Below, piece by piece: positions 25,796-56,505 of a stretch of DNA of 64,000 nt. Position numbers and translations under genes: made by a program. Each line of letters begins with the position of its first letter. Within the stretch, counting starts at the first letter, position 1. Under the pieces are notes generated by a model. It was not told the origin of the DNA. It was given only the letters and a program-made list of their open reading frames with translations, and ran no database searches. Origin of the DNA: Actinobacteria bacterium UBA959 (GTDB taxonomy: Bacteria; Actinomycetota; Actinomycetes; S36-B12; UBA5976); NCBI GenBank assembly GCA_002293025.1, contig DBCL01000015.1, positions 24,590 to 88,589 of the forward strand, given 5' to 3'.

Positions 25796-25870
25796 AGTTT
25801 GGCTGGTCCGCAGTGGCTATCCCTGCAAGCCGCAGTGCGTGTCGCCAACCTGGGGTGGCAAGATTCACTC

Positions 25871-38396: not shown

Positions 38397-41300
38397 TACC
38401 TACCACTGCTCCCAGGGCTTTTATGCCATAAATGTGCTGGTAGGTCATTATGTGATTCTTTCAAATTATTTGCTGCCGTTCTAACATTATTACCGACATT
38501 GCCACTTGGAGCAATATCAGCATACGGCGATTGCACTAATCCACTGGCATGCAACAGCAATTTTCGAGCAGGCCCCATTCCTCCGGTCAATCTTCGATCA
38601 CGACTTGCGTTAGGTACAGCCATCAATTCAGTCTCCTCTGTAGATTCAGCTATCTCACCTACTGGTTGATTTAGATAGTTAATAACTGCTTCGACTCCTT
38701 GCTCTCGCCAAATTTGATGCAGGTCTGTTAGCTGCCAACATCCCAGGCCGCTAATCGAGACAGCTCTAGGGCCAGTACGACGGATTAAGCCTTTAACCAA
38801 AACTAACCAAGAATTGAAAATGCTGTCATGAAAGTGATGTTGTGCCTCATCAAAAAAGGCGATATCAATAGGGCCAGAACCATCATCTAACGTGACAAAA
38901 ACTACTCGCTTACCAGATCTAATCGGAGGCGTTTGAGTGGCAACTTTTACACCTGCAACAAATATTTCTGATCGAGATCTTCTAGTTAGCAAGTTTTGAC
39001 TACTAATCAGTGCAATTTGAGAACTTAGATCTTTTAAAAAATCAAAGTGAAACGATAAAACATGATTAGTGGCGTCTAGGCCAAGTACTCGAAGTTCATT
39101 TTTGACTTGCTCGGCTGGGGTCATCTCAGGTAAGCCAACTAATTTATTTTGACTATCTGGAGCTATCTCAAGAAATAATTGTCCAGGTGTTTTTGAGACG
39201 CCTTTGAATTTAACTAAATCTGCTAATTCAAGTAGCAAGTCTCTCCGACTTCTACTAGAGCGATAAATGCTGTTCCCTACTCTGTGTAGCTCATCGAAAG
39301 CACCTGTAGTGATTAACCTCTCAACTACTGGGCGGCTTATAGGTACTCGGTTAAAAAAGTCGCTTAGGCTGCCATATGGCTGACCTAGCACAATTTGCTC
39401 TGCCTCCTGAGTGCTTATTCCTAGTATCTCCAGAAAAGAGATTCGAATGGCATACTGATTACTTTCATTTGAATCATTATTAAGGTCATCTATTTCGACT
39501 TGGTAGCTAAGCTTAGATTTGTTAATATCTAAACCAAGTATTTTTATACCAAAATTTCGAGCATCATTAAGAATCAGTCTCTTGGGATACATTCCTGGAT
39601 CGTGAGTTAACACCCCAGCCAAGAATGCTGCTGGGTAATGCGCTTTTAGCCAGGCGGATTGGTAAGTAGGGATTGCAAAAGCGGCAGCATGCGCCTTACA
39701 AAAACCAAAAGATCCAAAAGCTTTTAAGGTTTGCCATACTTCCTCGACAATGTTCAATTCATACCCACGCTTAAGGGCAGCTGGATAAAACTTTTGCTTA
39801 ACTTCAGCTTGCGATTCGAAAGTGCCTAAGCCACGCCGATACTCATCAGCTACTGCCAAAGTGCATCCAGTCATAACTGAAAATACTTGCATTACCTGTT
39901 CATGGAATACCACAACCCCAAATGTCTCTTGTAGCACTGGTTTTAGATCAGGATGTGGGTATTTCGCAGCAGCCCATCCATGCCTACCTTCTAGAAACGG
40001 TTTAACCATGTCGGACTTAACTGGCCCTGGCCTAAATAGAGATATATCTACTATCAAGTCATGCATATTTTGTGGGGCTAATTTGCCAATTAATTCTCGT
40101 TGTCCTGGAGACTCAATCTGAAAACACCCTAGAGTTTGAGTTGTTTTGATCAAATCATATGTTGCTTGATCATCTACTGGAATTACTTCTAAATCAATCT
40201 TGCGCTCTGTTACTCGCTCAATCTCAGTTAAAGCATGCCTAATAGCAGACTGCATTCTTACACCCAAGACATCTAATTTAATTAAACCTAGATCTTCCAC
40301 ATCATCTTTATCAAAAGCAGTCATCGGAAAATCTTGACCACTTGGTTGGACTGGAATGCGATTTAACAGTCCAGCATCTGAGATCACGACACCGCACGGA
40401 TGCATTGCCCTGTGCCTAGGTAGCGCATCTAATGCTTCAACAAAATCAAATAATTTATTAAACTGCAACTTGGTAGCACCAGATGCATAGCTCGAATTTC
40501 TTAGCTCTGGTAGATCATTTAGTGCTGCTCTGATATCTCGTGCCCTAATATGCGGGAAAGATGTAGCAAGAGCAGATATCTCTCCAGCTGGCAGCATAAG
40601 AGCTGCACCTACATCTCGAATTGCATGGCGTACCCGATAAGTATCTAGCATCGAAACTGCAGCAACTCTTTCTTTGCCAAACTTATTTAAGATCATTCGG
40701 TAAATATCCAGTCTGCGATCAGATTCAACATCAATGTCTATATCTGGAAGTGATCTGCGCTCAGGTGACAAAAAGCGCTCCATCAGCAGTCCATGATCTA
40801 ATGGATTAACTGAAGAAATACCTAGTAAATGAACTATTAAACTGCCAGCAGCCGAACCTCGAGCATTTACTCGTGAGCCTAAAGTTTTGACATCATCAAC
40901 CACGCTAGCAACTGTTAGAAAATATGCAGCAAAGCCCAACTTAGCAACTACTGCCAATTCTTCATCTAATCGATTTTTGACCTGAATTTTTCTATCTAAA
41001 CCATAACGCTCGAGTGCGTTAAATGTTCTAGATCTCAGAATTGCTTGAGCCTTACTTGCGTCATTTGCTTGATGTCTAATTGATTCACTTGAACTTGTAG
41101 TAGGCATGGTCAGTAGGCCAAGTTCTGGTAGGTGCACTCGCCCCCAGCCCAAGTCTCGAACTGGATCTAATGCACAACTGCTTGCCAGCAATTCAGTATC
41201 AAGAAGTAGTTTCTTTGCTCGAGTAGCATCTCTAGTTATTGCTAGGGCAACTTCAGTCATTTCTATATCAGTTTTTAGAAATGACTGATTTTCTCCAGGG

Positions 41301-42085
41301 TCATATGAGTTTTTAGTCAGAGGTATTAACTGTCTAATTGCATCAAGCAGGTCTGCTATCGGTGCTTCTTGAGGGTCTAAATATCTAACCGTATTAGTTA
41401 AAACTGCCTTAAGGCCATGCTCATCAGCAAACTTAAGCATTCTTGCTGCAAAAGCATTACTTAACAATCCTGTTTGATGTCCATGTGAAGTGATTGCAAT
41501 TACTGGAATAAGTCCCGTTTGTTGCTTCCAGTGCTGAATAAGAGCTAGTGCAACATCTGGTCGCCGACCATGTAGAGCCTGGGCAAACTCCGACTGCCAC
41601 CCCCAAAGAGCAACTATTGGCGCATCTAAAGAATTACTTATAGGTGCAAAATCACTTGTGATCAGTTTACCAATTTCATTAATACTAATTACTGGGCTAT
41701 TAAATTTATATTCATTACTTGCTGATATTGAAGAAATTTTTGATAAGAAAGGCCAGCCATGCCTACCTCTACCTAGTAACACAAATCGAGGATGTTTAGG
41801 GTCGATGTGTTTGCCACCATGTGCTGGAGTGCGGCGAATATTCGTGCTTGTTTGACTAGAGGTTATTCCACTTGCTTTGATTGCCAAATCTATTCCTAGT
41901 ATTGGGGTTATTCCAGATTCAATACATGATCTAACAAATCGAACAGCTCCCCCAATTTCATCGCGATCTGTTAGGGCGATCCGGGTAAACCCTTTAAATT
42001 TTGCATATGAAACTAATTTCTCAGGCAAAGCAGTTCCATGTCTCATTGAAAAAGCACTAGCTGTTTGTAAATGGGTAAATGTCAT
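38396..42085 (-). CDS. dnaE2: Error-prone DNA polymerase III alpha paralogue DnaE2
   Basis: 1229 aa. PHP N-terminus without an epsilon/tau-binding tail, PDIDIDVES, FCKAHAAAFA, C-terminal ...LWHKSPGSSGR tail as recalled for DnaE2 proteins. It is a second alpha paralogue besides dnaE at 6382-9921. LexA box upstream. Confidence 0.88.
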   Translation of the reverse strand: MTFTHLQTASAFSMRHGTALPEKLVSYAKFKGFTRIALTDRDEIGGAVRFVRSCIESGITPILGIDLAIKASGITSSQTSTNIRRTPAHGGKHIDPKHPRFVLLGRGRHGWPFLSKISSISASNEYKFNSPVISINEIGKLITSDFAPISNSLDAPIVALWGWQSEFAQALHGRRPDVALALIQHWKQQTGLIPVIAITSHGHQTGLLSNAFAARMLKFADEHGLKAVLTNTVRYLDPQEAPIADLLDAIRQLIPLTKNSYDPGENQSFLKTDIEMTEVALAITRDATRAKKLLLDTELLASSCALDPVRDLGWGRVHLPELGLLTMPTTSSSESIRHQANDASKAQAILRSRTFNALERYGLDRKIQVKNRLDEELAVVAKLGFAAYFLTVASVVDDVKTLGSRVNARGSAAGSLIVHLLGISSVNPLDHGLLMERFLSPERRSLPDIDIDVESDRRLDIYRMILNKFGKERVAAVSMLDTYRVRHAIRDVGAALMLPAGEISALATSFPHIRARDIRAALNDLPELRNSSYASGATKLQFNKLFDFVEALDALPRHRAMHPCGVVISDAGLLNRIPVQPSGQDFPMTAFDKDDVEDLGLIKLDVLGVRMQSAIRHALTEIERVTERKIDLEVIPVDDQATYDLIKTTQTLGCFQIESPGQRELIGKLAPQNMHDLIVDISLFRPGPVKSDMVKPFLEGRHGWAAAKYPHPDLKPVLQETFGVVVFHEQVMQVFSVMTGCTLAVADEYRRGLGTFESQAEVKQKFYPAALKRGYELNIVEEVWQTLKAFGSFGFCKAHAAAFAIPTYQSAWLKAHYPAAFLAGVLTHDPGMYPKRLILNDARNFGIKILGLDINKSKLSYQVEIDDLNNDSNESNQYAIRISFLEILGISTQEAEQIVLGQPYGSLSDFFNRVPISRPVVERLITTGAFDELHRVGNSIYRSSRSRRDLLLELADLVKFKGVSKTPGQLFLEIAPDSQNKLVGLPEMTPAEQVKNELRVLGLDATNHVLSFHFDFLKDLSSQIALISSQNLLTRRSRSEIFVAGVKVATQTPPIRSGKRVVFVTLDDGSGPIDIAFFDEAQHHFHDSIFNSWLVLVKGLIRRTGPRAVSISGLGCWQLTDLHQIWREQGVEAVINYLNQPVGEIAESTEETELMAVPNASRDRRLTGGMGPARKLLLHASGLVQSPYADIAPSGNVGNNVRTAANNLKESHNDLPAHLWHKSPGSSGR

Positions 42086-42375
42086 TAGCTAGCACTTCTA
42101 ATCAGGATCCATTGATCGGCTTCCTGGTCGTAATCAATACCAATTACTAAATAGGTTTGATTTTTAACTTGAGGGCTAGATTTAACTAGCGTTAACTTTC
42201 GCTGCTGTTGCATGTAGTCCCCTAATATCAAAAGTGATACCGGGGGAACGGTGTTGGCTTGGGCGTAGTCAGCAGCTGTGCTTCCCCGCACCGCGCTGAC
42301 TACACCAAGTGCAATTGAGTCATGGGGTCGAAGTTGACACCAATCGCACCGACTGCAACTAGGTAGCGAACCCAA
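42085..42375 (-). CDS. Hypothetical small protein translationally coupled to dnaE2 (start uncertain: TTG 42375, or the only ATG at 42213 giving 42 aa)
   Basis: The stop TAA overlaps the dnaE2 ATG (TAATG). The track start is a TTG codon. The single in-frame ATG (42213) is preceded by AGGGGA. A CxxCxxC cluster is present only in the long version. No family recognised. Confidence 0.35.
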   Translation of the reverse strand: MGSLPSCSRCDWCQLRPHDSIALGVVSAVRGSTAADYAQANTVPPVSLLILGDYMQQQRKLTLVKSSPQVKNQTYLVIGIDYDQEADQWILIRSAS

Positions 42376-42426
42376 TTCAGTCCAAAGCCAATTTCGATTA
42401 GGTGTTTAGCCGTATCCGGAGGCTAT

Positions 42427-42442
42427 TCGAACACCTGTTCGA
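42427..42442. promoter_or_regulatory. LexA (SOS) box, actinobacterial type TCGAAC-N4-GTTCGA
   Basis: TCGAACACCTGTTCGA exactly matches the mycobacterial/actinobacterial SOS-box consensus. It is embedded in a perfect 10+10 nt palindrome CTATTCGAAC-ACCT-GTTCGAATAG (42423-42446), 47 nt upstream of the first possible start of the small-ORF/dnaE2/dinB operon. Confidence 0.75.
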
Positions 42443-42516
42443 ATAGCAGTAGTCAAGCATGAAGGGCTGACATCAAGCAACCGCCCCTGAAATTAGGTCG
42501 TTTCCAGCCTTGCTGC

Positions 42517-45156: not shown

Positions 45157-46020
45157 TTACTCTTTTAACCGATCAACACTTAACATTTTGATGCCAACAA
45201 TCACCGCATAAACCCATAGAGCAATAGCCGCTAGGTAGCCAACAATAGAGATTGCAGCAGGTGCATCTACTGCTACCAGTAATTGACGAACATTCAAAAG
45301 CACAATCAGGCCGCCAATTATTACTCCCATAATCCGTTGTGGAGCCTTCTTCACTAACCAAGCAGCCAGCGGTGCCGCCAAGAGTCCACCAATTAGTAAG
45401 GCCAAGAGTGGCTGCCATGGGAATTGGCGGTAGCCCAATCCGAATAAGAAACCAACTGTTGTAAAGATGGCGACAAACAACTCAGACGTATTGGTTGTGC
45501 CAATTGCTTTTCTAGGTGTTAACGCGTTAGTTGCAGTCAGGGTGGTGGTAACTACTGGACCCCAACCTCCTCCTCCAGTTGCGTTGACCACACCACCTAC
45601 TAAACCCAAGGGAGCAAGCCAGCGAGCACGTGCTCTGCGTTTTTTACCAAATATCTTGGTACGAGTAAATCGATACAAAATCATTAATCCCAAGATCAAC
45701 AAGATGGAAGATGTCCAAGGAAGTGCCCTGGACAAGTCGACATTACTTAGTAATACCGCTCCAACAAACCCACCAATGGAGCCTGGCACTCCCACCTTAA
45801 ACATGGCATGCCAATCAACATTTTTGTATTTAACATGGGCCCAACCACTTGAGATAGCAGTTCCAATTTTGGCTACATTAACTACTGCTGAGGCCACAGC
45901 TGGGTTGTAGCCAATTGCAATCAAAATTGTGGTGCTGACCACCCCAAAGGCCATTCCCATAGCGCCATCTATTAACTGGGCTAGGAAACCAGCAAGAGAA
46001 ACCAAGAGCAATGTGACCAT
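45157..46020 (-). CDS. TauE/SafE (TSUP) family anion/sulfite exporter-type permease
   Basis: 287 aa, about 8 TM segments. GFLAQLIDGAMGMAFGVVSTT at the N-terminus and a repeated half. Stop abuts the methyltransferase stop (TAATTA). Confidence 0.8.
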   Translation of the reverse strand: MVTLLLVSLAGFLAQLIDGAMGMAFGVVSTTILIAIGYNPAVASAVVNVAKIGTAISSGWAHVKYKNVDWHAMFKVGVPGSIGGFVGAVLLSNVDLSRALPWTSSILLILGLMILYRFTRTKIFGKKRRARARWLAPLGLVGGVVNATGGGGWGPVVTTTLTATNALTPRKAIGTTNTSELFVAIFTTVGFLFGLGYRQFPWQPLLALLIGGLLAAPLAAWLVKKAPQRIMGVIIGGLIVLLNVRQLLVAVDAPAAISIVGYLAAIALWVYAVIVGIKMLSVDRLKE

Positions 46021-46069
46021 TGGGTAAGTATCTCAACCAAGTGCTGGATTACTTGACTAACATCACCCT

Positions 46070-46582
46070 ATGAACTCCGAGGAATTGCACCCTTCAGTCT
46101 TGCGTGTTCAGCAAGCGCTTGCCAAATTGGGTGGAGATACAGACCTAATTCGCAAACTAGACCAATCAGCTCGAACCTCTGCTGAAGCAGCGCAAGCGCT
46201 CGGAGTGCAAGTTTCCCAGATCGTAAATTCTCTAGTTTTTAATGGCCACAAAAATTCTGAAGTCCAGCCGGTATTAGTCCTCTCCTCTGGTGGGCACAGA
46301 GTGGATCTGGACTTAATCGCAACCTCGCTAGGTTTTGATTCGATCTCAAAAGCCGATGCCGATACTGTTAAATCTGCAACAGGATTTGCCATCGGAGGAG
46401 TGAGTCCTGTCGGCCACCTAAATCAACTACCAACTCTGATTGATTTAGACCTAGCAATATTTGACGAAGTGTGGGCCGCCGCAGGACATCCTTATTGGGT
46501 CTATCCCACCACATTTAAAGAATTAGTAGCCATGACTGGCGGCACAGCAGCCATGGTGAGTGCAGATCCATTAACTAGATGA
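46070..46582 (+). CDS. YbaK/EbsC-type aminoacyl-tRNA editing-domain protein
   Basis: 170 aa. IVNSLVF..., VLVLSSGGHRVDL, ATGFAIGGVSPVGH. ATGA overlap with the next ORF. Confidence 0.75.
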   Translation: MNSEELHPSVLRVQQALAKLGGDTDLIRKLDQSARTSAEAAQALGVQVSQIVNSLVFNGHKNSEVQPVLVLSSGGHRVDLDLIATSLGFDSISKADADTVKSATGFAIGGVSPVGHLNQLPTLIDLDLAIFDEVWAAAGHPYWVYPTTFKELVAMTGGTAAMVSADPLTR

Positions 46583-47292
46583 ATTCCAATTCAGAGATCT
46601 ATCTTCGGATAGATATATTTCGAGTTAAATCTGTATTTCCAGCATTTATGCATATAGCCTTTGATAGATTCTGGTTGGCTAGAGATTCAAACATTAAATT
46701 CTTTCGATTGCTGGGCACTGGCACTGGTAGAACTTTTACGAGTAAAGATGCAGATCTTAAGCAATGGGTTGTGCTAACAACTTGGCTAGATTTAGAGCAA
46801 TCTAGAAATTTCAATTCCAGTACACTTGTGAAATCGTGGGTTAAAAACTGCCAAGAGCATGCCGCCCTAATTTCAACAACAATCATCTCTAAAGGCTCTT
46901 GGGTTGGTAAAAAGCCTTTTGGAGACAAAACTCCAACACGAGTTGATGGGCCAGTGCTCTCAATTACTCGTGCTCGGATAAAGTCACACATGTGGCGTAA
47001 ATTCCAAAGAGAGGTTCCTCCAGTTTCCACTTCACTGCACTCGTCCCCTGGTTTGGTGACAGCAATTGGTATTGGTGAAGCGCCAATTGGATTACAGGGA
47101 ACTTTAAGCATCTGGCGATCTAATTTGGAACTGACAGAATTTGCGCAACGAGGAGCACCTCATCGCAAAGTAATCAACCAAACGCATGCACTTAACTGGT
47201 ATTCAGAAGAGTTGTTTGCCAGATTCGCCATAAAAGAGGTCCATGGGAGTCTTCATGGCGTACCTTTAGACCAAGAGCTTCGAATTAGTTAG
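46579..47292 (+). CDS. CrtA-like protein (spheroidene monooxygenase / carotenoid 2-hydroxylase-ketolase family)
   Basis: 237 aa. IFRV...FWLARDSNIKFFRLLGTGTGRTFT resembles the N-terminal FRF...FWKLxGSGTGxGFT region I recall for CrtA. Context next to cruF-like, GT2 and crtD-like genes. Family call from memory only. Confidence 0.45.
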   Translation: MNSNSEIYLRIDIFRVKSVFPAFMHIAFDRFWLARDSNIKFFRLLGTGTGRTFTSKDADLKQWVVLTTWLDLEQSRNFNSSTLVKSWVKNCQEHAALISTTIISKGSWVGKKPFGDKTPTRVDGPVLSITRARIKSHMWRKFQREVPPVSTSLHSSPGLVTAIGIGEAPIGLQGTLSIWRSNLELTEFAQRGAPHRKVINQTHALNWYSEELFARFAIKEVHGSLHGVPLDQELRIS

Positions 47293-47300
47293 GACTTTCC

Positions 47301-48095
47301 GTGAGCGAGCGAATGTATACCGGTCAGTGGAAGGACCTAGCCAAACCTAAGAAGTCTCAGATTATTCCTTGGCCAGTATTTGTAGCCTCAATTGCCTTGA
47401 TGATTGCCTGGGTATTGTCAGATGGAGCTGCGCGCCATCCGTACACAATTGCAATTGTAATAACAACTGGCATCTCAGTTTTCTTATGGTCATGGGTTAA
47501 TCATGGAATTATCTGGACAAGTGCCGCACTAATAATCACCTACACCTTTACTTATTTGGTTGAGTTAGTTGGTGTCAATGCTGGAATTCCTTTTGGTGAG
47601 TATGTTTACGCAGACACGCTTGGCCCAAAAATTGCGAGTGTTCCAGCACTTGTGCCGATAGCTTGGTTTGCGATGGCAATTCCCACATTGGCGATTGTGC
47701 GAACATTTCAAAAATCTATTTTGACCACTGCACTATTTGGAGCAGTTGGGTTAACTGCTTGGGATTTTATGCTCGATCCATGGATGGTTAATGAAGGGCA
47801 TTGGACTTGGTCAAACCCTGATCCCATTCTTCCTGGTTTAACTGGTATTCCGCTCACTAATTTCATTGGTTGGCTAATAACATCATTCTTGTTGATGCTG
47901 CTCATTGACAGATTACCAAAAAGAAGCATCGTGAAAATGCGGCTTCCACTAGCAGTTTATTGTTGGCAGTGGCTTGGTGGAGTGATTGCAAATCTATTTT
48001 TCCTAGACCAAGCGATTGTTGCCCTATATGTAGGAGTTGGTATGGCGTTGATCGCTGCGCCAGCCTTGTTTACCCAATATCTCAAGTACCGCTAA
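47301..48095 (+). CDS. cruF: Carotenoid biosynthesis membrane protein, DUF422/CruF-like (carotenoid 1,2-hydratase family)
   Basis: 264 aa polytopic membrane protein. GIPFGEYVYADTLGPKI..VPALVPIAWF and LTAWDFMLDPWMVNEGHWTWSN match the PF04240-type pattern as recalled. Confidence 0.65.
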   Translation: MSERMYTGQWKDLAKPKKSQIIPWPVFVASIALMIAWVLSDGAARHPYTIAIVITTGISVFLWSWVNHGIIWTSAALIITYTFTYLVELVGVNAGIPFGEYVYADTLGPKIASVPALVPIAWFAMAIPTLAIVRTFQKSILTTALFGAVGLTAWDFMLDPWMVNEGHWTWSNPDPILPGLTGIPLTNFIGWLITSFLLMLLIDRLPKRSIVKMRLPLAVYCWQWLGGVIANLFFLDQAIVALYVGVGMALIAAPALFTQYLKYR

Positions 48096-48115
48096 CCGCC
48101 GCTATCGTAAAGGCC

Positions 48116-49255
48116 ATGGGCCGGTTATTTCATGCGATAGTACTGAGGATTGTGCAGCTTGGATCCTTGCTTGCGGTTGGTCTAACAGCCCACACTTTTG
48201 TTAATTCAAAACTTCTAAAACAGGCAAGCTCGCCAGGATTAGTCTTTGAGAAAGTAAGCATTTTGCTTCCAGTGCTTAATGAAGCAAGCCGTGTGGCCCC
48301 TACCTTGCAATCCATATTGAGTCAACAGAACCTGCAAAACTTAGAATTTATTATTAGAGACGATGGATCTGATGATGGAACGGTCGCTCTGATCCAACAC
48401 ATGACAAAACATTCGACATTTGAAGTTAAGTTGATTGAGAAAGACATTGACACACCAGATGGTTGGATAAGTAAGTCTTGGAGCTGCCAGAAAATGGCCG
48501 AAGAGTCTTCTGGCTCAGTACTGGTATTTATTGACGCTGATGTAACTTTCGCACCAGATGCAATTTCAAGAGCAGTTCGAACTCTTCGTGAATTGAATTT
48601 GAGTCTAATTTCACCCTACCCAAAGCAAGTTGCCCTCACTTGGTCAGAGCGCCTAGTTCAGCCGCTCCTGCAATGGTCCTGGCTAACATTCTTGCCGCTT
48701 GGCATCGCCAAAAAATCTAGTAATCCAGCGCTGGCCGCTGCTAATGGTCAATTTTTAGTTGTTGATCGTGAAATGTATTTCCAATCTGGGGGGCACGCTG
48801 CAACTCCTGCTGATGTTTTTGATGACATTGCATTACTGCGAGCGATAAAGACTGCTGGTGGAAAAGGTGTAGTAATTGATGGAACAGACATGGCTAGCAC
48901 CAGGATGTATCGAAACTCTCTTGAGTTAACCAATGGATATGCCAAGTCCTTGTGGTCAGCGTTTGGTGGTCGTACCAAATCTCGAGTATTGATGGGCACT
49001 TTATCCTTAATCTACATAGTGCCCGCTGTAGCTGCCCTGACTAAAACAACAGCACCAATTCGAAGAGCTGGTGCTGTTGGCTACTTAGCTGGAATTCTGG
49101 GAAGGGTCATTACTGCCAATCGGACTGGTGCAAAAAGCATGCCAGATGCAATCTCACATCCAATTTCCATTGCTTCACTTGCTATCTTGAATGAGTATTC
49201 CTGGATACAACGTGTTCGCGGCAAACTTCGCTGGCGTGGAAGAAAAATCCCATGA
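48116..49255 (+). CDS. Family 2 glycosyltransferase (carotenoid glycosyltransferase candidate)
   Basis: VSILLPVLNEA, IIRDDGSDDGT, FIDADV (DxD). C-terminal TM segments. The track ORF from 47960 overlaps cruF. ATG at 48116 chosen. Confidence 0.75.
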   Translation: MGRLFHAIVLRIVQLGSLLAVGLTAHTFVNSKLLKQASSPGLVFEKVSILLPVLNEASRVAPTLQSILSQQNLQNLEFIIRDDGSDDGTVALIQHMTKHSTFEVKLIEKDIDTPDGWISKSWSCQKMAEESSGSVLVFIDADVTFAPDAISRAVRTLRELNLSLISPYPKQVALTWSERLVQPLLQWSWLTFLPLGIAKKSSNPALAAANGQFLVVDREMYFQSGGHAATPADVFDDIALLRAIKTAGGKGVVIDGTDMASTRMYRNSLELTNGYAKSLWSAFGGRTKSRVLMGTLSLIYIVPAVAALTKTTAPIRRAGAVGYLAGILGRVITANRTGAKSMPDAISHPISIASLAILNEYSWIQRVRGKLRWRGRKIP

Positions 49256-50745
49256 CCAAGATAGCTGTTATTGGATCAGGGGTTGGTGGTCTCGCAGTTG
49301 CTGCGAGATTGCAAGCGTTGGGACACGCAGTCACCGTATTCGAAAAGCAAGCAACATTTGGTGGCAAGTTAGCTAGATTCGAAAAAGAAGGCTACGTATT
49401 CGATTTGGGACCATCTCTTTTCACTTTGCCTGCTGTTTACAGGGACCTGTTCGATCGAACTGGAAAACCTCTTGATGATCAAATTGAGATCGTGGCACCA
49501 AGTCCAGCATTTCGGTACCAATTTCCTGATGGCCAAGTCGTTAAGTTGCCCGCTTCTGATCCAGGCAGAATTGCTGGCGCCTTAGGTGCAGCGCTTGGTT
49601 CAGCCGCCACGACACAATGGTTGTCACTGATCAAACACGCAGCTCAGATTTGGCAGTTAACTAGAGTGCCAATATTAGAAAGTCCGCTAAATGGCTGGCG
49701 AGATCTGATTCCATTAGCTAAAAACCCACTGAATTTATTCAAAGTTCGGCCGTGGCAATCACTTAGAAGAGTTGCCAATCAACATCTAAAGGATCCAAGA
49801 TTAATTATGCTGCTTGATCGTTACGCCACATACACTGGATCTGATCCAAGAAAAGCTCCCGCAGCTCTCATTACAGTTCCTTATCTAGAGCAAAACTTTG
49901 GAGCTTGGCACATATCTGGGGGGATTCATCAACTAGGTGTTGCAATTTATGGCCGATGCAATGAACTAGGTGTTGAGTTTAGATTTAACACCCAAGTGCA
50001 GAAGATTCAAACTCAAGGTAACTCAGTTAAGTCTATCATTTTAGACACGGGCGAGGAGATAGAATTTGACCTGGTAGTTTCTAACACAGACGCCCAACTA
50101 CTTTACAGCAAACTAATTGATCATCCGTTAGCCAAAAAAGCATTACAGAGACTGACCAAAAGCACCCCATCTTTATCTGGTTTTGTTTTACTGCTAGCAG
50201 TGGAAGGGGAAACTCCTGATATTGAACATCACAATGTCTGGTTCCCCGCTGATTATGATGCTGAATTTGACCAAATCTTTAGCAAGCATCCTCAGCCGGT
50301 TACTGACCCCACTATTTATGCATGTGTGCCTGACGACGCATCAATGAGACCAAATGCGAACAGTGAGTCTTGGTTTGTCTTGGTTAATGCTCCAAGGCAC
50401 GGAGTTGGTCCTGGTTTAGTAGATTGGAATCAGCCAGGCATGAAAGAAAATTATGCTAAAAATATCCTAAGCAGATTAACTGATCGTGGAGTCAACTTAG
50501 AAGGCAGAATAAAGTGGCAGCAGATTAGAACTCCGGCAGATTTAGAATCTGAATTCAATGCTCCCGGAGGATCAATTTATGGATCTAGTAGTAATGGGGC
50601 ACGAGCTGCTTTTCTGCGACCAATGAATAAAAGTTCGATTAATGGACTTTATTTGGTTGGTGGGAGTTCTCACCCAGGAGGGGGCTTGCCACTTGTTGGT
50701 TTATCTGCTCGAATTGTTGCGAATTTGATTGGTAAAGCGAAGTAG
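49252..50745 (+). CDS. Phytoene desaturase-family FAD oxidoreductase, CrtD-like (hydroxycarotenoid 3,4-desaturase candidate)
   Basis: 497 aa. Dinucleotide fold IAVIGSGVGGLAVAARL, C-terminal GLYLVGGSSHPGGGLPLVGLSA typical of the CrtI/CrtD family. It is a second paralogue besides crtI at 53309. Confidence 0.65.
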   Translation: MTKIAVIGSGVGGLAVAARLQALGHAVTVFEKQATFGGKLARFEKEGYVFDLGPSLFTLPAVYRDLFDRTGKPLDDQIEIVAPSPAFRYQFPDGQVVKLPASDPGRIAGALGAALGSAATTQWLSLIKHAAQIWQLTRVPILESPLNGWRDLIPLAKNPLNLFKVRPWQSLRRVANQHLKDPRLIMLLDRYATYTGSDPRKAPAALITVPYLEQNFGAWHISGGIHQLGVAIYGRCNELGVEFRFNTQVQKIQTQGNSVKSIILDTGEEIEFDLVVSNTDAQLLYSKLIDHPLAKKALQRLTKSTPSLSGFVLLLAVEGETPDIEHHNVWFPADYDAEFDQIFSKHPQPVTDPTIYACVPDDASMRPNANSESWFVLVNAPRHGVGPGLVDWNQPGMKENYAKNILSRLTDRGVNLEGRIKWQQIRTPADLESEFNAPGGSIYGSSSNGARAAFLRPMNKSSINGLYLVGGSSHPGGGLPLVGLSARIVANLIGKAK

Positions 50746-51354
50746 CACCAAAACTGCTGACCCAGCAGCCAGAAGCGCCATTATCAATGCACCCATTGAA
50801 GTAATTAACTCCCACTCGGATTGCAGTGGCATTGCAAACGACAGCATTGAAAACATGATTACCCGGGTTGGGCGTTCCGCCACAGTTACTGCGCCAACAC
50901 TAGTGACGCCTAAGCTTTGACCCTTGGTTCGGAAATACTCCAAACAGAAAATGCTAAAGACTGCAGCCAGGACGAAATAAATATTTGCCCCAGCACTAAG
51001 AAGTGCTAGGAACCAAGATGTCTCAGCAATTCGATCAACAACTGCATCTAGAACTGCACCAAACTTAGATCTCTTATTTTGTATTGTGGCTACAGCTCCA
51101 TCAATCCCATCCAAAAAAGTACTAAATCCAGCCAGCAACCCCGCAAATACCCATACCTGGTTTATAAAAAGCAATGATGCCAAGATTGCCAAGAGTCCGC
51201 CTAGCAATGTTATTAAATTAGGATGGATCTTAAGCTTCACAAAAGGTTTGGCTAACAAGTAAATTACAGTCAAGAAAGCTCTCACAGGCAAACTTGGGCT
51301 GACTAAATGATTCGCTCCCCAATGATCTATATATTCGATTCTGCTAGAAATCAT
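50701..51354 (-). CDS. CDP-alcohol phosphatidyltransferase family protein
   Basis: 217 aa membrane protein. DGIDGAVAT-x8-GAVLDAVVDR fits D-G-x2-A-R-x8-G-x3-D-x3-D with Thr in place of Arg. The 3' end overlaps the crtD-like gene by 45 nt (convergent). Confidence 0.7.
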   Translation of the reverse strand: MISSRIEYIDHWGANHLVSPSLPVRAFLTVIYLLAKPFVKLKIHPNLITLLGGLLAILASLLFINQVWVFAGLLAGFSTFLDGIDGAVATIQNKRSKFGAVLDAVVDRIAETSWFLALLSAGANIYFVLAAVFSIFCLEYFRTKGQSLGVTSVGAVTVAERPTRVIMFSMLSFAMPLQSEWELITSMGALIMALLAAGSAVLVLLRFTNQIRNNSSR

Positions 51355-52265
51355 GACTGCAGATTCATAAATACTTCGCGTGATGCTGATGATCTATTCA
51401 TTGTGTAAAAGTGAATTCCTGGAGCACCGCCAGCTAGCAGCTCGGCAGATAAATTGGTTGCTACCTCAACTCCTCTTTTTGCAACTTCAACTGGCTGTGT
51501 TGATCCCTCTTTCAAGTATTTTAAAATCTCAGGGGGCATTTCGCTGCCACTTAATTGAGCAAACTTTAGAATTTGTTTTTCGTCAGTTAAAGGCATAACC
51601 CCAGGAATTATCGGAATTGTGCAGCCATATGCTCGAGCTCGGTCCACGAGAGCGAAATAAGAGTCAGGCTTAAAGAACAATTGGGTAATAGCCATAGTTG
51701 CACCAGCATCTTGTTTTTTGGCGAGCACCTCAGCATCAAACTCAAGTGAGCTGGACTCAGGATGTTTATCTGGGAATGCCGCCACCCCAATTTCTTTCAT
51801 ACCAAGTTCTCGTGCTAACTCAACTAACTCAACAGCATGTGTGAAACCTGATGGGTGCGGCTCCCATGGTTTATCAAGGCCACCTGGAGGATCTCCACGT
51901 AATGCCATGAGCGAGGTCACTCCGCTGCTGAGTAATAGGTTGATGATTTCACTAAGTTCTGTGCCACTTGATCCAACACATGTCAAATGCGCTACTGGCT
52001 TTAGTTTTGTCTCATTGACAATGCGCTCAGTTACTCTAAGTGTTCGATCTCGAGTTGACCCTCCAGCGCCGTAAGTCACTGAAACGAAGTTTGGGTTTAA
52101 CGGCTCCAACTCTCGAATGGCATCCCAGAGTCGGATCTCCCCTTCATTGGTGGCTGGCGGGAAGAACTCAAAGGAGAACTGGGCTGGCTGGCTTTGGGTC
52201 ACGGCGGCAAGGTTAGCCCTTTTAGGGGAGGCGGTACGGTTTCCGCATGTCGAACCAGTTGTCAC
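51351..52265 (-). CDS. metF: 5,10-methylenetetrahydrofolate reductase MetF
   Basis: FSFEFFPP, VTYGAGGSTRDRT. The track start (GTG 52265) overlaps the divergent polyprenyl synthase ORF. An in-frame GTG at 52202 (MTQSQPAQFSFEFFPP) is an alternative. Confidence 0.9.
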   Translation of the reverse strand: MTTGSTCGNRTASPKRANLAAVTQSQPAQFSFEFFPPATNEGEIRLWDAIRELEPLNPNFVSVTYGAGGSTRDRTLRVTERIVNETKLKPVAHLTCVGSSGTELSEIINLLLSSGVTSLMALRGDPPGGLDKPWEPHPSGFTHAVELVELARELGMKEIGVAAFPDKHPESSSLEFDAEVLAKKQDAGATMAITQLFFKPDSYFALVDRARAYGCTIPIIPGVMPLTDEKQILKFAQLSGSEMPPEILKYLKEGSTQPVEVAKRGVEVATNLSAELLAGGAPGIHFYTMNRSSASREVFMNLQS

Positions 52266-53305
52266 AGCTTAGGTCTGAGGTGGACCGAGAGATTGCTGCC
52301 TTTCTAGATCAAAAGCAGCCCGTGCTAGCCCAGATAAGTGCCGATGGGTCTGTGTTGCTAGATAGCATCCGCGATTTTGTCGCTGGCGGCAAAAGATTGC
52401 GCCCAATTTTTCTGCTTACTGGTTGGCTAGCTACCGGCTCCCCGCTAACAAAATCTGCATATCAAGCAGGTGCTGCCTTAGAACTCTTGCAAGCTTGCGC
52501 CTTAATCCATGATGACGTTATGGACTCCAGCGACACGAGAAGAGGTAGGCCTGCTACTCACCGAGAGTTTGCTACTTACCACCGAGGGCACAAGTGGTCA
52601 GGTTCTTCCGAAGTATTTGGAACTGGGGCAGCCATTTTACTTGGAGATTTATGCCTGTCATGGGCAGATGAATTACTCATGTCAATTGAATTAGAACAGG
52701 TGAATAAAGACTTAGGTAAAGAAGTTTATGACTTAATGCGCACTGAGTTGATGATTGGACAATACTTAGATTTGTTAGAACAAGCGCGAGGCGGCGGATC
52801 GATTGAACGTGCCTACCAGGTGATTCAGTATAAATCTGCAAAATACACAATAGAACGTCCGCTTCACTTAGGTGCAGTACTTGCAGGTGGATCCAATCAA
52901 TTATTAGAGGTGCTCACCCAGTATGGATTAACTTTGGGCGAAGCATTTCAACTTAGAGATGATGTCCTTGGCGTGTTTGGCGATCCTTCCCAAACCGGGA
53001 AGCCTGCCGGAGACGACTTACGTGAGGGAAAGCAGACAGTATTGATTGCTGAAACTTTAAGAACTGCATCTGCAACCGAGCAAGAGGAGATTGCTTATCA
53101 CCTAGGGAATCCAGCCATTGATGAACATGAAATTGCTAACTTACGCAAAATCATTACCAGCACGAAAGCCTTAGACCGGGTTGAAGAACAAATCTCGAGC
53201 AAGACCGCACTAGCCAAGCAGGCGGCTGAGTCCAAGATCATCCCCCAAGATGTCTCCAAATTGCTTTTTCAACTAGCGGATGCCGCTACTTCACGGAATG
53301 TTTAG
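52247..53305 (+). CDS. crtE: Polyprenyl (geranylgeranyl) diphosphate synthase CrtE/IdsA-type
   Basis: 352 aa. First Asp-rich motif LIHDDVMDSSDTRRG and second FQLRDDVLGVFGD. Followed by crtI and crtB. Confidence 0.8.
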   Translation: MSNQLSQLRSEVDREIAAFLDQKQPVLAQISADGSVLLDSIRDFVAGGKRLRPIFLLTGWLATGSPLTKSAYQAGAALELLQACALIHDDVMDSSDTRRGRPATHREFATYHRGHKWSGSSEVFGTGAAILLGDLCLSWADELLMSIELEQVNKDLGKEVYDLMRTELMIGQYLDLLEQARGGGSIERAYQVIQYKSAKYTIERPLHLGAVLAGGSNQLLEVLTQYGLTLGEAFQLRDDVLGVFGDPSQTGKPAGDDLREGKQTVLIAETLRTASATEQEEIAYHLGNPAIDEHEIANLRKIITSTKALDRVEEQISSKTALAKQAAESKIIPQDVSKLLFQLADAATSRNV

Positions 53306-53308
53306 CCC

Positions 53309-54841
53309 ATGACAAACTTATTGAACATACTTTCTAGGGACCCACAAACCGTCTCTGGCCCAAACGAGAACATCGTAATTGTTGGTGCAGGGCTGGCTGG
53401 TTTGTCTGCTGCGATGCGGCTTCGAGGGGCTGGCAAAAATGTAACTGTGGTTGAGCGAGAATCTGTTCCCGGTGGTCGCGCAGGCCTATTACAAAAAGAT
53501 GGCTTCTCATTCGATACTGGTCCATCCGTTTTAACTATGCCAGATTTGATTGCAGATTGTTTCGATTCACTGGGTGAAGATATGCAAGATTGGCTGAACC
53601 TAAAGCCAGTTGAACCTCTCTATAGATCGTTTTATCCAGATGGTTCTGTCCTGGATGTGCACTCAGATCCAGCTCGAATGGCTGTTGAGATTGAACAAAT
53701 CATTGGCCCAGAAGAGGCTGCTGGCTATTTGAAGTATGTTGATTTTGTTAGCAAGCTTTACAAATATGAGATGAAAGATTTTATCGACAGAAATATTGAT
53801 TCTCCTTTAGATTTGCTAACACCAAACCTAATGAGATTGATTCAAGTTGGAGCATTCAAAAAACTTGCGCCTAAGGTGAGTCAGTATCTAAAGGATCCAA
53901 GAACCCAGCGGGTTTATTCCTTCCAAGCTATGTATGCAGGACTTTCACCTTACAAAGCTCTGGCCATCTATGCCGTTATTGCATACATGGACTCAGTAGC
54001 TGGAGTTTATTTCCCAGAAGGTGGCATGCATGCAGTTCCGAGGGCCATGGCAGATGCTGCAACTGAGCATGGAGTCACTTTTAAGTACAACACTGAAGTC
54101 GTAACAGTTGAGCGCACAAGTCGTCGCGCTACTGCCGTTATAACCAAAGATGGTGAACGAATTCCAGCTGATGTAGTGATCTTGAACCCAGATTTGCCAA
54201 TCGCATATCGAGATCTCCTTGGGCACACACCAGTGTCGGTTTCGCGACTGACCTACAGTCCCTCTTGCGCAGTCTTACTTGCAGGATCCTCGGCCAAGTT
54301 CAATAAAATTGCTCATCACAATATTCACTTTGGCAATTCTTGGCGAGGAGTATTTGATGATCTGATCAAACATAAGAAATTGATGTCAGACCCAAGCATT
54401 TTGGTGACTAACCCAACTAGATCAGACCCGTCACTAGCACCTACTGGTAAAGAGATTTACTACATCCTGTTCCCTACTCCAAATCTTGATTCAAACTATG
54501 ACTGGAAGAAACTTGGTCCACGCTATCGTGATGAAATGTTGCGTGTCCTCGAAGAGCGGGGCTATGTTGGTTTAACTGAATCGATAGTCACTGAAGCACT
54601 GACTACTCCACAAGACTGGGCTGACCAAGGAATGGAACGTGGCGCCCCATTTGCTTCGGCCCATTCATTTTTCCAAACAGGGCCATTTAGACCAAAGAAC
54701 CTATATGGCGAAAACATCGTCTTCACGGGTTCGGGCACCACTCCTGGAGTTGGCGTGCCAATGGTTTTAGTTTCAGGACGACTTGCAGCAGAGCGAGTAC
54801 TTGGAAAAGATTCTTCATATAAGTCTCGCGCTTGGAGTTAA
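53309..54841 (+). CDS. crtI: Phytoene desaturase CrtI
   Basis: 510 aa. IVIVGAGLAGLSAAMRL, and C-terminal FTGSGTTPGVGVPMVLVSGRLAAE. Confidence 0.85.
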   Translation: MTNLLNILSRDPQTVSGPNENIVIVGAGLAGLSAAMRLRGAGKNVTVVERESVPGGRAGLLQKDGFSFDTGPSVLTMPDLIADCFDSLGEDMQDWLNLKPVEPLYRSFYPDGSVLDVHSDPARMAVEIEQIIGPEEAAGYLKYVDFVSKLYKYEMKDFIDRNIDSPLDLLTPNLMRLIQVGAFKKLAPKVSQYLKDPRTQRVYSFQAMYAGLSPYKALAIYAVIAYMDSVAGVYFPEGGMHAVPRAMADAATEHGVTFKYNTEVVTVERTSRRATAVITKDGERIPADVVILNPDLPIAYRDLLGHTPVSVSRLTYSPSCAVLLAGSSAKFNKIAHHNIHFGNSWRGVFDDLIKHKKLMSDPSILVTNPTRSDPSLAPTGKEIYYILFPTPNLDSNYDWKKLGPRYRDEMLRVLEERGYVGLTESIVTEALTTPQDWADQGMERGAPFASAHSFFQTGPFRPKNLYGENIVFTGSGTTPGVGVPMVLVSGRLAAERVLGKDSSYKSRAWS

Positions 54842-54842
54842 G

Positions 54843-55751
54843 TTGAAACGCGGCGCTTTAATCAAGGCTGGGATTCAAGATCCAATTCTGCAGCAGTCCT
54901 ATGAGTTGTGTCGCAAACTTAATAAGAAGCACGGTAAAACTTACTATCTAGCCACGTTGTTGCTCCCACCTGCCAAGAGACCTTTTGTACACGCACTATA
55001 TGGATTTGCCAGATATGCAGATGAGATTGTGGATGATCTAGCTAGCACTTTAACCCCTCAGCAGAAGGCTGAAGCCCTTAAATCTTGGGGAGATCAGGTG
55101 TTATCAGATCTGCGCAACCAGAAATCTAGCGATCCAATTGCGATGGCCTTAGTTGATACTGTAACTCGCTGGCAGATTCCAATTGAACATTTTGAAGCCT
55201 TCTTAAAGTCCATGACTATGGATTTAACGATTTCGGAGTATGAAACTTTTGATGATCTTTACCAATATGTTTACGGCTCTGCTGCGGTAATTGGCTTGCA
55301 GATGGTTCCTATTCTTGAGCCATTAAGTGATAAAGCCTATGAACCTGCAAAGGATCTAGGGGTAGCCTTCCAGTTAGCCAATTTCATTAGAGATATAAAC
55401 GAAGATTTAGATCGTGGTCGAATTTATCTACCACTTGCTGACCTAGCGAAATTCAATGTGACTAAAGCCGACCTGGAGGCTCGGAGGTTAACTCCTGCTA
55501 TCAAAGAACTAATCAAGTATGAAATAGCAAGGGTTAAAGAACTTGAATCTAGGTCAATTCCAGGAATTTCACTGCTACATCCCTCCTCTAGGCCTTGTAT
55601 TGAAGCTGCCCAGATTCTCTACTGTGGAATAGTTGATGAAGTCGAACGAATTGATTACCAAGTCTTTGACAAGCGCGCCAAAGTGAGTTTAGGTAAGAGG
55701 TTGTTTGTATTTATCAATAAGTTTTTCGAAGCTAGACGTCATCGTAACTAA
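54843..55751 (+). CDS. crtB: Phytoene synthase CrtB
   Basis: YLATLLLPPAKRPFVHALYGFARYADEIVDD, YVYGSAAVIGLQM, FQLANFIRDINEDLDRGRIYLP. The track ORF from 54783 overlaps crtI. TTG at 54843 follows GGAG with 5-nt spacing. Confidence 0.88.
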   Translation: MKRGALIKAGIQDPILQQSYELCRKLNKKHGKTYYLATLLLPPAKRPFVHALYGFARYADEIVDDLASTLTPQQKAEALKSWGDQVLSDLRNQKSSDPIAMALVDTVTRWQIPIEHFEAFLKSMTMDLTISEYETFDDLYQYVYGSAAVIGLQMVPILEPLSDKAYEPAKDLGVAFQLANFIRDINEDLDRGRIYLPLADLAKFNVTKADLEARRLTPAIKELIKYEIARVKELESRSIPGISLLHPSSRPCIEAAQILYCGIVDEVERIDYQVFDKRAKVSLGKRLFVFINKFFEARRHRN

Positions 55752-55761
55752 TAAAGCGTTC

Positions 55762-56505
55762 TTAGTGGATGGTAACCCCACCATCAATGAAGATGGTTTG
55801 CCCAGTAACCATCCCAGCGCTGGGACTTAAGAGAAATAAAACTGACTCAGCCACGTCTTCCTGACTGGCCATTCGACCAAGTGGAATCGAGGCCATCTTG
55901 TCTTTCATATACTCATCATTAGTCAGTAGAGGCGCTGTCATATCACTTGGCACAATCGTTGGACCAACCGCATTTACCCGAATACCATCGCTTGCCCACT
56001 CAAAGGCGAGAGCTTTTGCCATGAACATCACTCCTGCTTTACTTACAGAATATCCAACAGTGTTGTGAACCGCAGAGTGACCACTTGTTGAACCAAGATG
56101 CACAATGCTTCCCTTAGATTTCTTTAACTCAGGATAAGCAGCCTGAGACATAAAGAAGGTGCCATTTAGATTGATATCTATGACATCTGTGAAGTCTTTC
56201 TCAGACACTTCACTTGCTTTCCCTCGTCGAACAATTCCAGCATTGTTAACTAGGCAATCCAGCCTGCCATGCTCTGCAACAACTTTCGCAATTAGGTCAA
56301 AGCAGGATTCTCGAGATCGAACATCCACAAAATGTCTACTATGGGGTTGTCCTAATTCATTAGTCCACTCAGACTCCGGCAACAAATCAGCATTAGCCAC
56401 AATGGCACCCCGCTCAGCAAGAGTTTTTGCAATGGTTGCACCTATGCCGCGCGCAGCGCCAGTCACTAGGGCAACTTTCCCAGAAAAACTGTGTGAATCA
56501 ACCAA
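55762..56505 (-). CDS. Short-chain dehydrogenase/reductase (SDR, FabG-like)
   Basis: 247 aa. VALVTGAARGIGATIA, NNAG, and the catalytic YSVSKAG. Last gene of the ABC importer operon. Confidence 0.85.
   Translation of the reverse strand: MVDSHSFSGKVALVTGAARGIGATIAKTLAERGAIVANADLLPESEWTNELGQPHSRHFVDVRSRESCFDLIAKVVAEHGRLDCLVNNAGIVRRGKASEVSEKDFTDVIDINLNGTFFMSQAAYPELKKSKGSIVHLGSTSGHSAVHNTVGYSVSKAGVMFMAKALAFEWASDGIRVNAVGPTIVPSDMTAPLLTNDEYMKDKMASIPLGRMASQEDVAESVLFLLSPSAGMVTGQTIFIDGGVTIH

Follow-up and report, generated by a model that had tools for sequence, protein, structure and literature searches.

Introduction

Among the bacterial systems known to modify the acyclic (psi) end of carotenoids, the one closest to the locus described here is the operon of the acI actinobacteria (Nanopelagicales). 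According to Dwulit-Smith et al. 2018 (bioRxiv 10.1101/367102 / Appl Environ Microbiol), its genes are ordered acyltransferase-crtA-cruF-cruG-crtD and lie upstream of crtE-crtI-crtB. We have analyzed a probable counterpart of this operon in Actinobacteria bacterium UBA959. The locus lies in a 64-kb stretch of contig DBCL01000015.1 (assembly GCA_002293025.1, positions 24,590 to 88,589 of the forward strand), referred to below as the window, whose own numbering is used throughout. Four plus-strand genes at 46579-50745, homologous to crtA, cruF, a family-2 glycosyltransferase (GT2) gene and crtD, follow a gene for a YbaK/ProX-type editing-domain protein.

In the 2018 paper, the predicted product of the acI operon is a carotenoid glycoside ester, named "actinoxanthin", which is proposed to act as an actinorhodopsin antenna or as a photoprotectant. 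Intergenic transcripts in Lake Mendota metatranscriptomes pointed to co-transcription of the operon, and the acI CrtE, CrtB and CrtI proteins made lycopene in a heterologous host. Hydroxylation was predicted for acI CrtA; the authors stressed that the product was unverified and considered that acI-CrtD might be a CrtO. The acyltransferase, whose gene is annotated as CoA methyl esterase, is said to be present "most often" as the first gene. For a Luna-type actinobacterium, actinorhodopsin was shown to bind a native carotenoid, which makes initial proton pumping faster (Chuon et al. 2021).

More distant systems share parts of this enzyme set. The cyanobacterial myxoxanthophyll pathway, in Synechococcus PCC 7002, employs CruF as 1',2'-hydratase and CruG as 2'-O-glycosyltransferase. 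We know of no description of that pathway that includes a CrtA homologue. The flavobacterial myxol pathway, found in Flavobacterium P99-3 and Nonlabens spongiae, comprises CruF, CrtD, CrtA-OH, CrtY and CrtZ; when the N. spongiae genes were placed in E. coli, CruF acted as hydratase, CrtD desaturated 1'-hydroxy-γ-carotene and CrtA-OH hydroxylated C-2', in the order CruF, CrtD, CrtA-OH (PMC11855829). The Nonlabens CrtA-OH is 31% identical to CrtA of R. capsulatus and 50% identical to the CrtA-OH of Flavobacterium P99-3 (PMC11855829). Salinixanthin and related γ-carotenoid acyl glycosides of Salinibacter and Rhodothermus are made with CruF, CruC, CruD, CrtO and CrtY, and loss of CruF in Rhodothermus blocks both glycosylation and acylation (PMC7414004). 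Salinixanthin is the antenna of xanthorhodopsin and serves as the model for a rhodopsin antenna carotenoid.

A predicted carotenoid-modification operon of the AcAMD-5 family

The four-gene block is in all likelihood an operon for psi-end carotenoid modification, orthologous to the published acI operon and situated, like it, upstream of crtE-crtI-crtB. Together with its 5' neighbor it reads as follows:

46070-46582, plus strand: YbaK/ProX-type editing-domain protein, 170 amino acids (aa), PF04073; 5' neighbor of the operon
46579-47292, plus strand: crtA-family monooxygenase homologue, 237 aa, NCBIfam NF045923; predicted psi-end C-2(') oxygenase
47301-48095, plus strand: predicted cruF-type carotenoid 1,2-hydratase, a membrane protein of 264 aa, PF04240
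48116-49255, plus strand: GT2, 379 aa, PF00535; predicted carotenoid glycosyltransferase (CruG/CruC-like)
49252-50745, plus strand: crtD-like CrtI-family desaturase, 497 aa, TIGR02734; CrtD is the best sub-family

The gene content of the locus, the family membership of its proteins, their orthology and their synteny are all directly observed. Relatives of the CrtA homologue were found in 384 instances among GTDB species genomes, and the loci of the best 80 of these 384 were inspected; the locus counts given below refer to this set. Almost all of the 80 are labelled Nanopelagicales, Planktophila, Nanopelagicus or unclassified Actinobacteria. Over the set, identity to the CrtA homologue ranges from 43 to 61%, the closest relative standing at 61% and the Planktophila/Nanopelagicus proteins at 43-52%, while the phytoene desaturase CrtI is 66-71% identical to CrtI of Nanopelagicaceae. 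Wherever the contig is long enough, one order recurs: crtA-cruF-GT2-crtD, then a phosphatidyltransferase gene and usually a methylenetetrahydrofolate reductase (MTHFR) gene on the opposite strand, then crtE-crtI-crtB. The two opposite-strand genes keep their position in most of the related loci. Recurrence of this order in the 80 loci speaks against a cluster brought together by chance.

The first 10.9 kb of the window are 99.96% identical to JNSF01000002.1 of GCA_000754425.1, the assembly of "actinobacterium acAMD-5". This metagenome-assembled genome was reportedly recovered by Ghai et al. 2014 in their work on the Amadorio reservoir. The five proteins listed above are identical to its GenBank entries KGA09637-KGA09641, the YbaK-like protein being KGA09641.1. 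In that record the crtA-like, cruF-like, GT2 and crtD-like genes are GM45_1035, 1030, 1025 and 1020, and all four are labelled "hypothetical protein"; the corresponding JGI labels are "hypothetical protein", "putative membrane protein", "glycosyltransferase involved in cell wall biosynthesis" and "phytoene desaturase". In GTDB-based papers, AcAMD-5 is the name of a family beside Nanopelagicaceae. Judged by sequence, then, the locus is the AcAMD-5-family orthologue of the acI/Nanopelagicales operon for psi-end modification, AcAMD-5 being sister to the acI family.

Horizontal acquisition was considered as an origin for the block. It was rejected in view of a guanine-plus-cytosine content that stays flat across the region and by synteny that extends over the order; on the same evidence, we take the carotenoid block to be old and vertically inherited.

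Two related loci carry variant clusters. The first (L081:10488-14480) contains a crtA-like gene, a gene for a CrtO-like ketolase, cruF and a GT2 gene. In the second (L090:62-8553), which has no crtA, cruF or GT2 gene, ybaK overlaps a GNAT acetyltransferase gene, itself overlapping a CrtI-family gene; a fused polyprenyl-synthase-CrtI protein (842 aa), crtB and a lycopene cyclase fragment are also encoded there.

Set beside the described systems, the window agrees with the acI operon in its four enzyme genes, their order and strand, their place before crtE-crtI-crtB, the intervening minus-strand genes and the orthology of the proteins, as well as in the predicted chemistry and the proposed antenna or photoprotection role. 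It differs in belonging to AcAMD-5 rather than to acI-A, -B or -C and in lacking the BioH-like α/β-hydrolase "acyltransferase"; its first co-oriented gene is of the YbaK type, which goes unmentioned in the 2018 text so far as that could be searched. With the flavobacterial myxol pathway it has in common the psi-end trio of 1,2-hydratase, 3,4-desaturase and CrtA-family C-2 oxygenase (PMC11855829). The flavobacterial cluster, however, has crtY and crtZ and no glycosyltransferase, whereas the window has a GT2 gene and neither cyclase nor ring hydroxylase. The salinixanthin-type pathways resemble it in that the psi end is hydrated and then glycosylated, CruF being needed first; on the other hand, the window contains no CrtO-type ketolase, no CruD or other acyltransferase, no cyclase and no rhodopsin gene, and Rhodothermus has no annotated crtA (PMC7414004). 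A CruF and GT2 pair acting on the psi end is shared with the cyanobacterial myxoxanthophyll pathway, and of the curated models CruG fits the window's GT2 best; with scores well under the equivalog cut-offs (CruF 65/400, CruG 104/600), the proteins are distant relatives.

The operon is thus an ordinary further case of the acI type published in 2018 and introduces no new concept. Its interest lies in showing that psi-end modification operons are not confined to acI proper but occur in its sister family AcAMD-5 as well, and in practical uses: four genes labelled as hypothetical in GenBank can be annotated, and the choice of genes for heterologous expression is widened. The Nanopelagicales and related groups rank with the most abundant bacteria of fresh water, and whether their actinorhodopsins have a carotenoid antenna is a testable question.

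Enzyme families

Family assignments were made by profile searches with Pfam and NCBIfam, and the equivalog cut-offs quoted are those of the individual NCBIfam models. The CrtA homologue matches NF045923 (spheroidene monooxygenase CrtA) with E=8e-46 and 156 bits, the cut-off being 300; the match is full-length, residues 13-227 aligning to positions 8-225 of 226. No Pfam family matched this protein, and a PDB sequence search gave no match. In an exhaustive representative search its relatives made up 797 clusters at 50% identity. A sample of 128 representatives fell into three groups whose source names were "monooxygenase", "spheroidene monooxygenase", "heme-degrading monooxygenase HmoA" or none, and reference enzymes were not located among these names.

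The CruF-type protein matches PF04240 (Caroten_synth) at 123.1 bits (cut-off 25; E=2e-35) over positions 5-207 of 209. It falls below the equivalog cut-offs of TIGR03460 (106/154.7 bits), NF045693 (65/400) and NF041333 (55/300). The glycosyltransferase scores 65 bits on PF00535 (Glycos_transf_2), and a DXD motif (FIDADV) is present in its translation. Its best NCBIfam model is CruG (NF045692, 104 bits, cut-off 600), followed by HpnB at 97 bits; the prediction that it is a CruG/CruC-like carotenoid glycosyltransferase is made from operon context. The crtD-like protein, in which an N-terminal motif for binding of flavin adenine dinucleotide (GSGVGG) occupies residues 8-13, passes the cut-off of 238 for TIGR02734 (crtI_fam) with 328 bits and scores 54 bits on NAD_binding_8. 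Among sub-families, two CrtD models give 357 and 299 bits, below their equivalog cut-offs of 580 and 500, and CrtID gives 251.

A first-pass annotation, made from the sequence without database searches, had called the five products a YbaK-type protein, a CrtA-like protein, a CruF-like protein, a GT2 and a second CrtI-family desaturase. The Pfam and NCBIfam searches bear out each of these calls, and no profile placed the crtA-like or the cruF-like open reading frame (ORF) in an unrelated family.

Gene layout

The same annotation had described five plus-strand ORFs joined by ATGA overlaps or by gaps of no more than 20 nt, with crtE-crtI-crtB about 1.5 kb downstream from 52247. Reading of the junctions confirmed the coordinates of the five genes. 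ATGA overlaps occur at 46579-46582 (ybaK/crtA) and at 49252-49255 (GT2/crtD), and the gaps measure 8 nt between crtA and cruF and 20 nt between cruF and the GT2 gene. Profile matches established the second group, whose crtE start at 52247 lies 1.5 kb beyond the end of crtD. The genes that follow crtD are:

50701-51354, minus strand: CDP-alcohol phosphatidyltransferase, phosphatidylinositol-phosphate (PIP) synthase-like; PF01066 50 bits, NF040950/NF045883 112/83 bits
51351-52265, minus strand: MTHFR, a housekeeping enzyme; PF02219 279 bits, TIGR00676 311 bits, over its cut-off
52247-53305, plus strand: polyprenyl (geranylgeranyl) diphosphate synthase, equivalent to crtE; PF00348 181 bits, syntenic with acI crtE
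53309-54841, plus strand: phytoene desaturase CrtI; TIGR02734 508 bits, PF01593 142 bits
54843-55751, plus strand: phytoene synthase CrtB; PF00494 228 bits

Three starts call for comment. The cruF gene begins with GTG at 47301, and an alternative ATG lies at 47313. For the GT2 gene the start was taken as the ATG at 48116, which has AAGG upstream and agrees with the GenBank call (KGA09638.1); the mechanically defined ORF begins with TTG at 47960. The crtB start is probably, from its context, the TTG at 54843, which is preceded by GGAG; here the mechanical ORF begins at 54783.

The phosphatidyltransferase gene is convergent with crtD and overlaps it by 45 nt. It is joined to the MTHFR gene by a 4-nt overlap, and the pair (minus strand, 50701-52265) lies between the two carotenoid operons with no evident carotenoid role. 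Close packing is general in the window: same-strand neighbors overlap by 4 or 1 nt in 17 of 40 pairs, that of the functionally unrelated phosphatidyltransferase and MTHFR genes included, and 26 of the 40 pairs are spaced between -4 and +20 nt. Because overlaps are so commonplace, tight packing is weak evidence here. A consensus scan of 45800-56000 found promoter-like sites to be fewer than in shuffled sequences (7 against 15.9) and terminator-like sites to be at chance level (9 against 8.9). Searches of the whole window with Rfam (gathering threshold) and ARAGORN returned zero RNA elements.

Predicted pathway and product

From the gene content we infer the following enzymatic steps, their order and the product. 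CrtE, CrtB and CrtI would make lycopene. CruF would then hydrate the 1',2' double bond at the acyclic end of its substrate, which would be lycopene or, should the genome encode a cyclase outside the window, γ-carotene; CrtD would add a 3',4' double bond. The CrtA homologue would oxygenate C-2', giving a hydroxyl as does the flavobacterial CrtA-OH or a keto group as does the purple-bacterial CrtA, and the GT2 would put a sugar on the 1'- or the 2'-hydroxyl. The expected product would be a xanthophyll resembling a myxol glycoside or "actinoxanthin" and might serve as a membrane photoprotectant, as a rhodopsin antenna, or as both. The YbaK-like gene would be an inherited neighbor, co-oriented and probably co-transcribed with the operon and dispensable for the pathway.

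The first-pass annotation had arrived at the same product class, a hydroxylated and glycosylated psi-end carotenoid, and had suggested that the pigment might be a rhodopsin antenna. Both ideas coincide with what Dwulit-Smith et al. 2018 predict and propose for the acI operon, and this agreement makes the reading a supported one but not a new one.

Several points weigh against it. None of the four enzymes reaches an equivalog cut-off (CrtA 156/300, CruF 106/155, CruG 104/600, CrtD 357/580), so that the profiles carry family membership solidly but not the exact substrate and regiochemistry, for which the specificity has to be deduced. On the hopanoid-associated HpnB model the GT2 obtains 97 bits, close to its score on CruG. 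Since no lycopene cyclase gene occurs in the window, lycopene and γ-carotene both stand as candidate substrates as far as the window goes; and since no α/β-hydrolase gene occurs there, the pathway may end in a product other than the one in the published model. Finally, the literature searched contains no report of the pigment of any Nanopelagicales member and no later paper naming the acI pigment.

Absence from the window was established over chosen ORFs that cover about 98% of it and were either assigned by profile or recognized as housekeeping from their translations. By profile assignment and reading of translations, no rhodopsin, lycopene cyclase, blh, crtO or acyltransferase/cruD gene is present in the 64 kb, and the approximately 10 kb beyond the low-coordinate end contain trp, lgt and gltB genes and no rhodopsin, lycopene cyclase, blh, crtO or cruD gene. 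Beyond the opposite end, the sequence recovered was a short Logan contig. The first-pass annotation had envisaged a search of the genome for rhodopsin, cyclase, blh, crtO and cruD; the answer obtained is negative and pertains to the window and that flank. The α/β-hydrolase "acyltransferase" had no match in the window by tblastn with three orthologues, and it may sit elsewhere in the genome.

The most serious alternative concerns the oxygen function at C-2'. If the CrtA homologue were a 2-ketolase of the purple-bacterial type, the product would be a keto-carotenoid glycoside and not a myxol-like diol. The sole curated model that the protein matches is indeed that of the Rhodobacter-type spheroidene monooxygenase (NF045923, 156 bits), and hydroxylase and ketolase are homologous, as the 31% identity between the Nonlabens CrtA-OH and R. 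capsulatus CrtA indicates. The score on that model, however, is far under the equivalog cut-off, the characterized CrtA relatives outside the purple bacteria are hydroxylases (PMC11855829), and hydroxylation is what the acI authors predicted (Dwulit-Smith et al. 2018). We regard a ketolase as possible but doubtful.

The YbaK-like neighbor

The YbaK-like protein scores 79.6 bits on PF04073 (tRNA_edit) and 57 bits on TIGR00011 (YbaK; cut-off 153), and its best match among solved structures is Thermus TTHA1699 (2cx5; E=1e-29). It resembles the YbaK/ProX trans-editing deacylases of the INS superfamily in its PF04073 fold family and in its GXXXP loop (GGVSP, residues 109-113, aligned with the loops of TTHA1699 and YbaK). 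It departs from them at position 53, where an Asn aligns with the conserved Lys of TTHA1699, E. coli YbaK and H. influenzae YbaK (1dbu). All characterized editing domains of the superfamily use this Lys together with the GXXXP loop (PMC11286415). Of 121 sequences, made up of the window's protein and the 120 database homologues closest to it, 103 have Asn at this position, 10 have Ser, 6 have Lys and 1 has Thr; most Planktophila orthologues have Ser. The replacement of Lys by Asn or Ser suggests, at the level of sequence, a changed substrate or a relaxed constraint on the residue. This lysine-less neighbor is the one unusual element of the locus and a small curiosity.

Upstream of crtA, a ybaK gene on the same strand is found in 53 of the 80 related loci. 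What directly precedes crtA is ybaK alone in 29 loci, an α/β-hydrolase gene alone in 19, ybaK followed by a glyoxalase-fold gene in 11 (with 3 more that have a gap) and ybaK followed by the α/β-hydrolase gene in 5; the α/β-hydrolase gene is directly upstream in 25 of 80. Within the window's own clade, represented by L001 and L084-L087 (YbaK-like proteins 68-77% identical), minus-strand genes for a SIS-domain protein and an amidohydrolase are inserted between ybaK and crtA, and the ATGA coupling is therefore not common to the closest relatives. Three minus-strand genes (two LPG_synthase_TM and one with a faint GDPD match) occupy the same interval in L081 and L083. On its other side, ybaK is equally constant beside a DUF6504-dnaE2 cassette, and in L090, which lacks crtA, cruF and GT2, it still adjoins carotenoid genes.

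These arrangements point to conserved, inherited gene order, rather than membership in the pathway, as the probable reason for the coupling. The first-pass annotation had recorded the translational coupling of ybaK to the module as unexplained. The ATGA overlap itself is real; given that 17 of 40 neighbor pairs in the window overlap and that the adjacency is broken in relatives, it is best read as conserved gene order.

It could be argued instead that the YbaK-fold protein is part of the pathway, converted to an ester hydrolase or transferase whose substrate is an acyl- or aminoacyl-sugar of the carotenoid glycoside, and that it fills in for the α/β-hydrolase where the gene for the latter is absent. 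Such a role would fit the frequency of ybaK upstream of crtA (53 of 80 loci, directly adjacent in 29) and the recurrence of the adjacency where the YbaK-like proteins are only 45-55% identical to that of the window, among them L091, whose protein retains the Lys and whose ybaK ends 1 nt before crtA. It would fit, too, the overlap of ybaK with the GNAT acetyltransferase gene of L090, which in turn overlaps a CrtI-family gene, and the absence of an α/β-hydrolase homologue from the window. The exchange of Lys for Asn, which the window's protein shares with 102 of its 120 closest homologues, and for Ser in most Planktophila orthologues, with the GXXXP loop kept, is what would be expected of a protein that had ceased to act on tRNA. 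Yet unrelated genes on the minus strand interrupt the adjacency, among the closest relatives as well as in further lineages; MTHFR and the PIP synthase are as stably embedded, so that baseline synteny is high; ybaK is conserved to the same degree beside the DUF6504-dnaE2 cassette; it persists in L090 without GT2, cruF and crtA; and no biochemical precedent exists. Participation of the protein in the pathway is unlikely. It is a long shot, in the specific form of the idea, that the lysine-less protein has lost tRNA editing and may work as an esterase or an acyl(aminoacyl)-transferase on a sugar ester of the carotenoid glycoside, perhaps replacing the α/β-hydrolase here. If true, a fold devoted to translation proofreading would have been recruited into pigment biosynthesis.

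We also considered whether the YbaK gene might be what the 2018 paper calls the acyltransferase. This was rejected: the gene in the paper carries the annotation CoA methyl esterase, which fits the BioH-like α/β-hydrolase gene that stands before crtA in Nanopelagicus-type loci and has no homologue in the window.

CrtO and non-C40 alternatives

The second CrtI-family gene would have a different meaning if it encoded a β-ring 4-ketolase, CrtO, since the product would then be an antenna carotenoid of the salinixanthin or echinenone kind. Dwulit-Smith et al. 2018 raise this possibility, and in one related lineage (L081) the corresponding cluster does include a CrtO-like gene. That gene served as a control. 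It scores 278 bits on CrtO and 82 on CrtD and so behaves opposite to the window's protein, showing that the profiles discriminate CrtD from CrtO; the window's protein obtains 357 and 299 bits on the CrtD models against 51.5 bits, from a partial match, on CrtO. A CrtO function is accordingly very unlikely, and the profile evidence in favor of CrtD slightly narrows the published product model to a 3',4'-didehydro psi end and away from a 4-keto ring.

Action of the cluster on a non-C40 or non-carotenoid isoprenoid (a C50 pathway of the bacterioruberin type or a hopanoid-type glycolipid), as the best CruF model (the archaeal bisanhydrobacterioruberin hydratase, TIGR03460, 106 bits) and the 97 bits of the GT2 on HpnB might hint, is most improbable, given that no UbiA/LyeJ-type prenyltransferase or squalene-hopene cyclase was recognized among the window's ORFs and that the operon is linked to crtE-crtI-crtB in related loci.

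Surrounding genes

Much of the remaining window encodes housekeeping functions. By reading of translations, positions 1-36547 contain core actinobacterial genes including hisF/A/H/B/C/D, dnaE, rluD, lspA, ileS, sepF-yggS-ftsZ and the dcw cluster from ftsQ to mraZ. An aldehyde dehydrogenase gene of the opposite strand (25715-27376) separates ftsW from murD. Genes for ABC transporters and oxidoreductases are also among the remaining ORFs, again from their translations.

Between this region and ybaK, the minus strand at 37161-42375 carries genes for a DUF6504 protein (42085-42375), a second DnaE-type polymerase (38396-42085) and a Y-family polymerase (37161-38396), joined by 1-nt overlaps. The group resembles damage-inducible mutagenesis cassettes of the imuA'-imuB-dnaE2 type. 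It adjoins ybaK in many of the related loci, some of which have a HEPN_SAV_6107 gene as well. Upstream of the DUF6504 gene, a 113-nt non-coding stretch (42382-42493, minus strand) retains about 85% DNA identity to L001, L086 and L087, where the flanking coding DNA is not alignable. The stretch holds the palindrome TTCGAACAGGTGTTCGAA, preceded by TTGACT. The palindrome fits the actinobacterial LexA SOS-box pattern, TCGAAC-N4-GTTCGA. The stretch is probably the SOS-regulated promoter of the downstream mutagenesis cassette.

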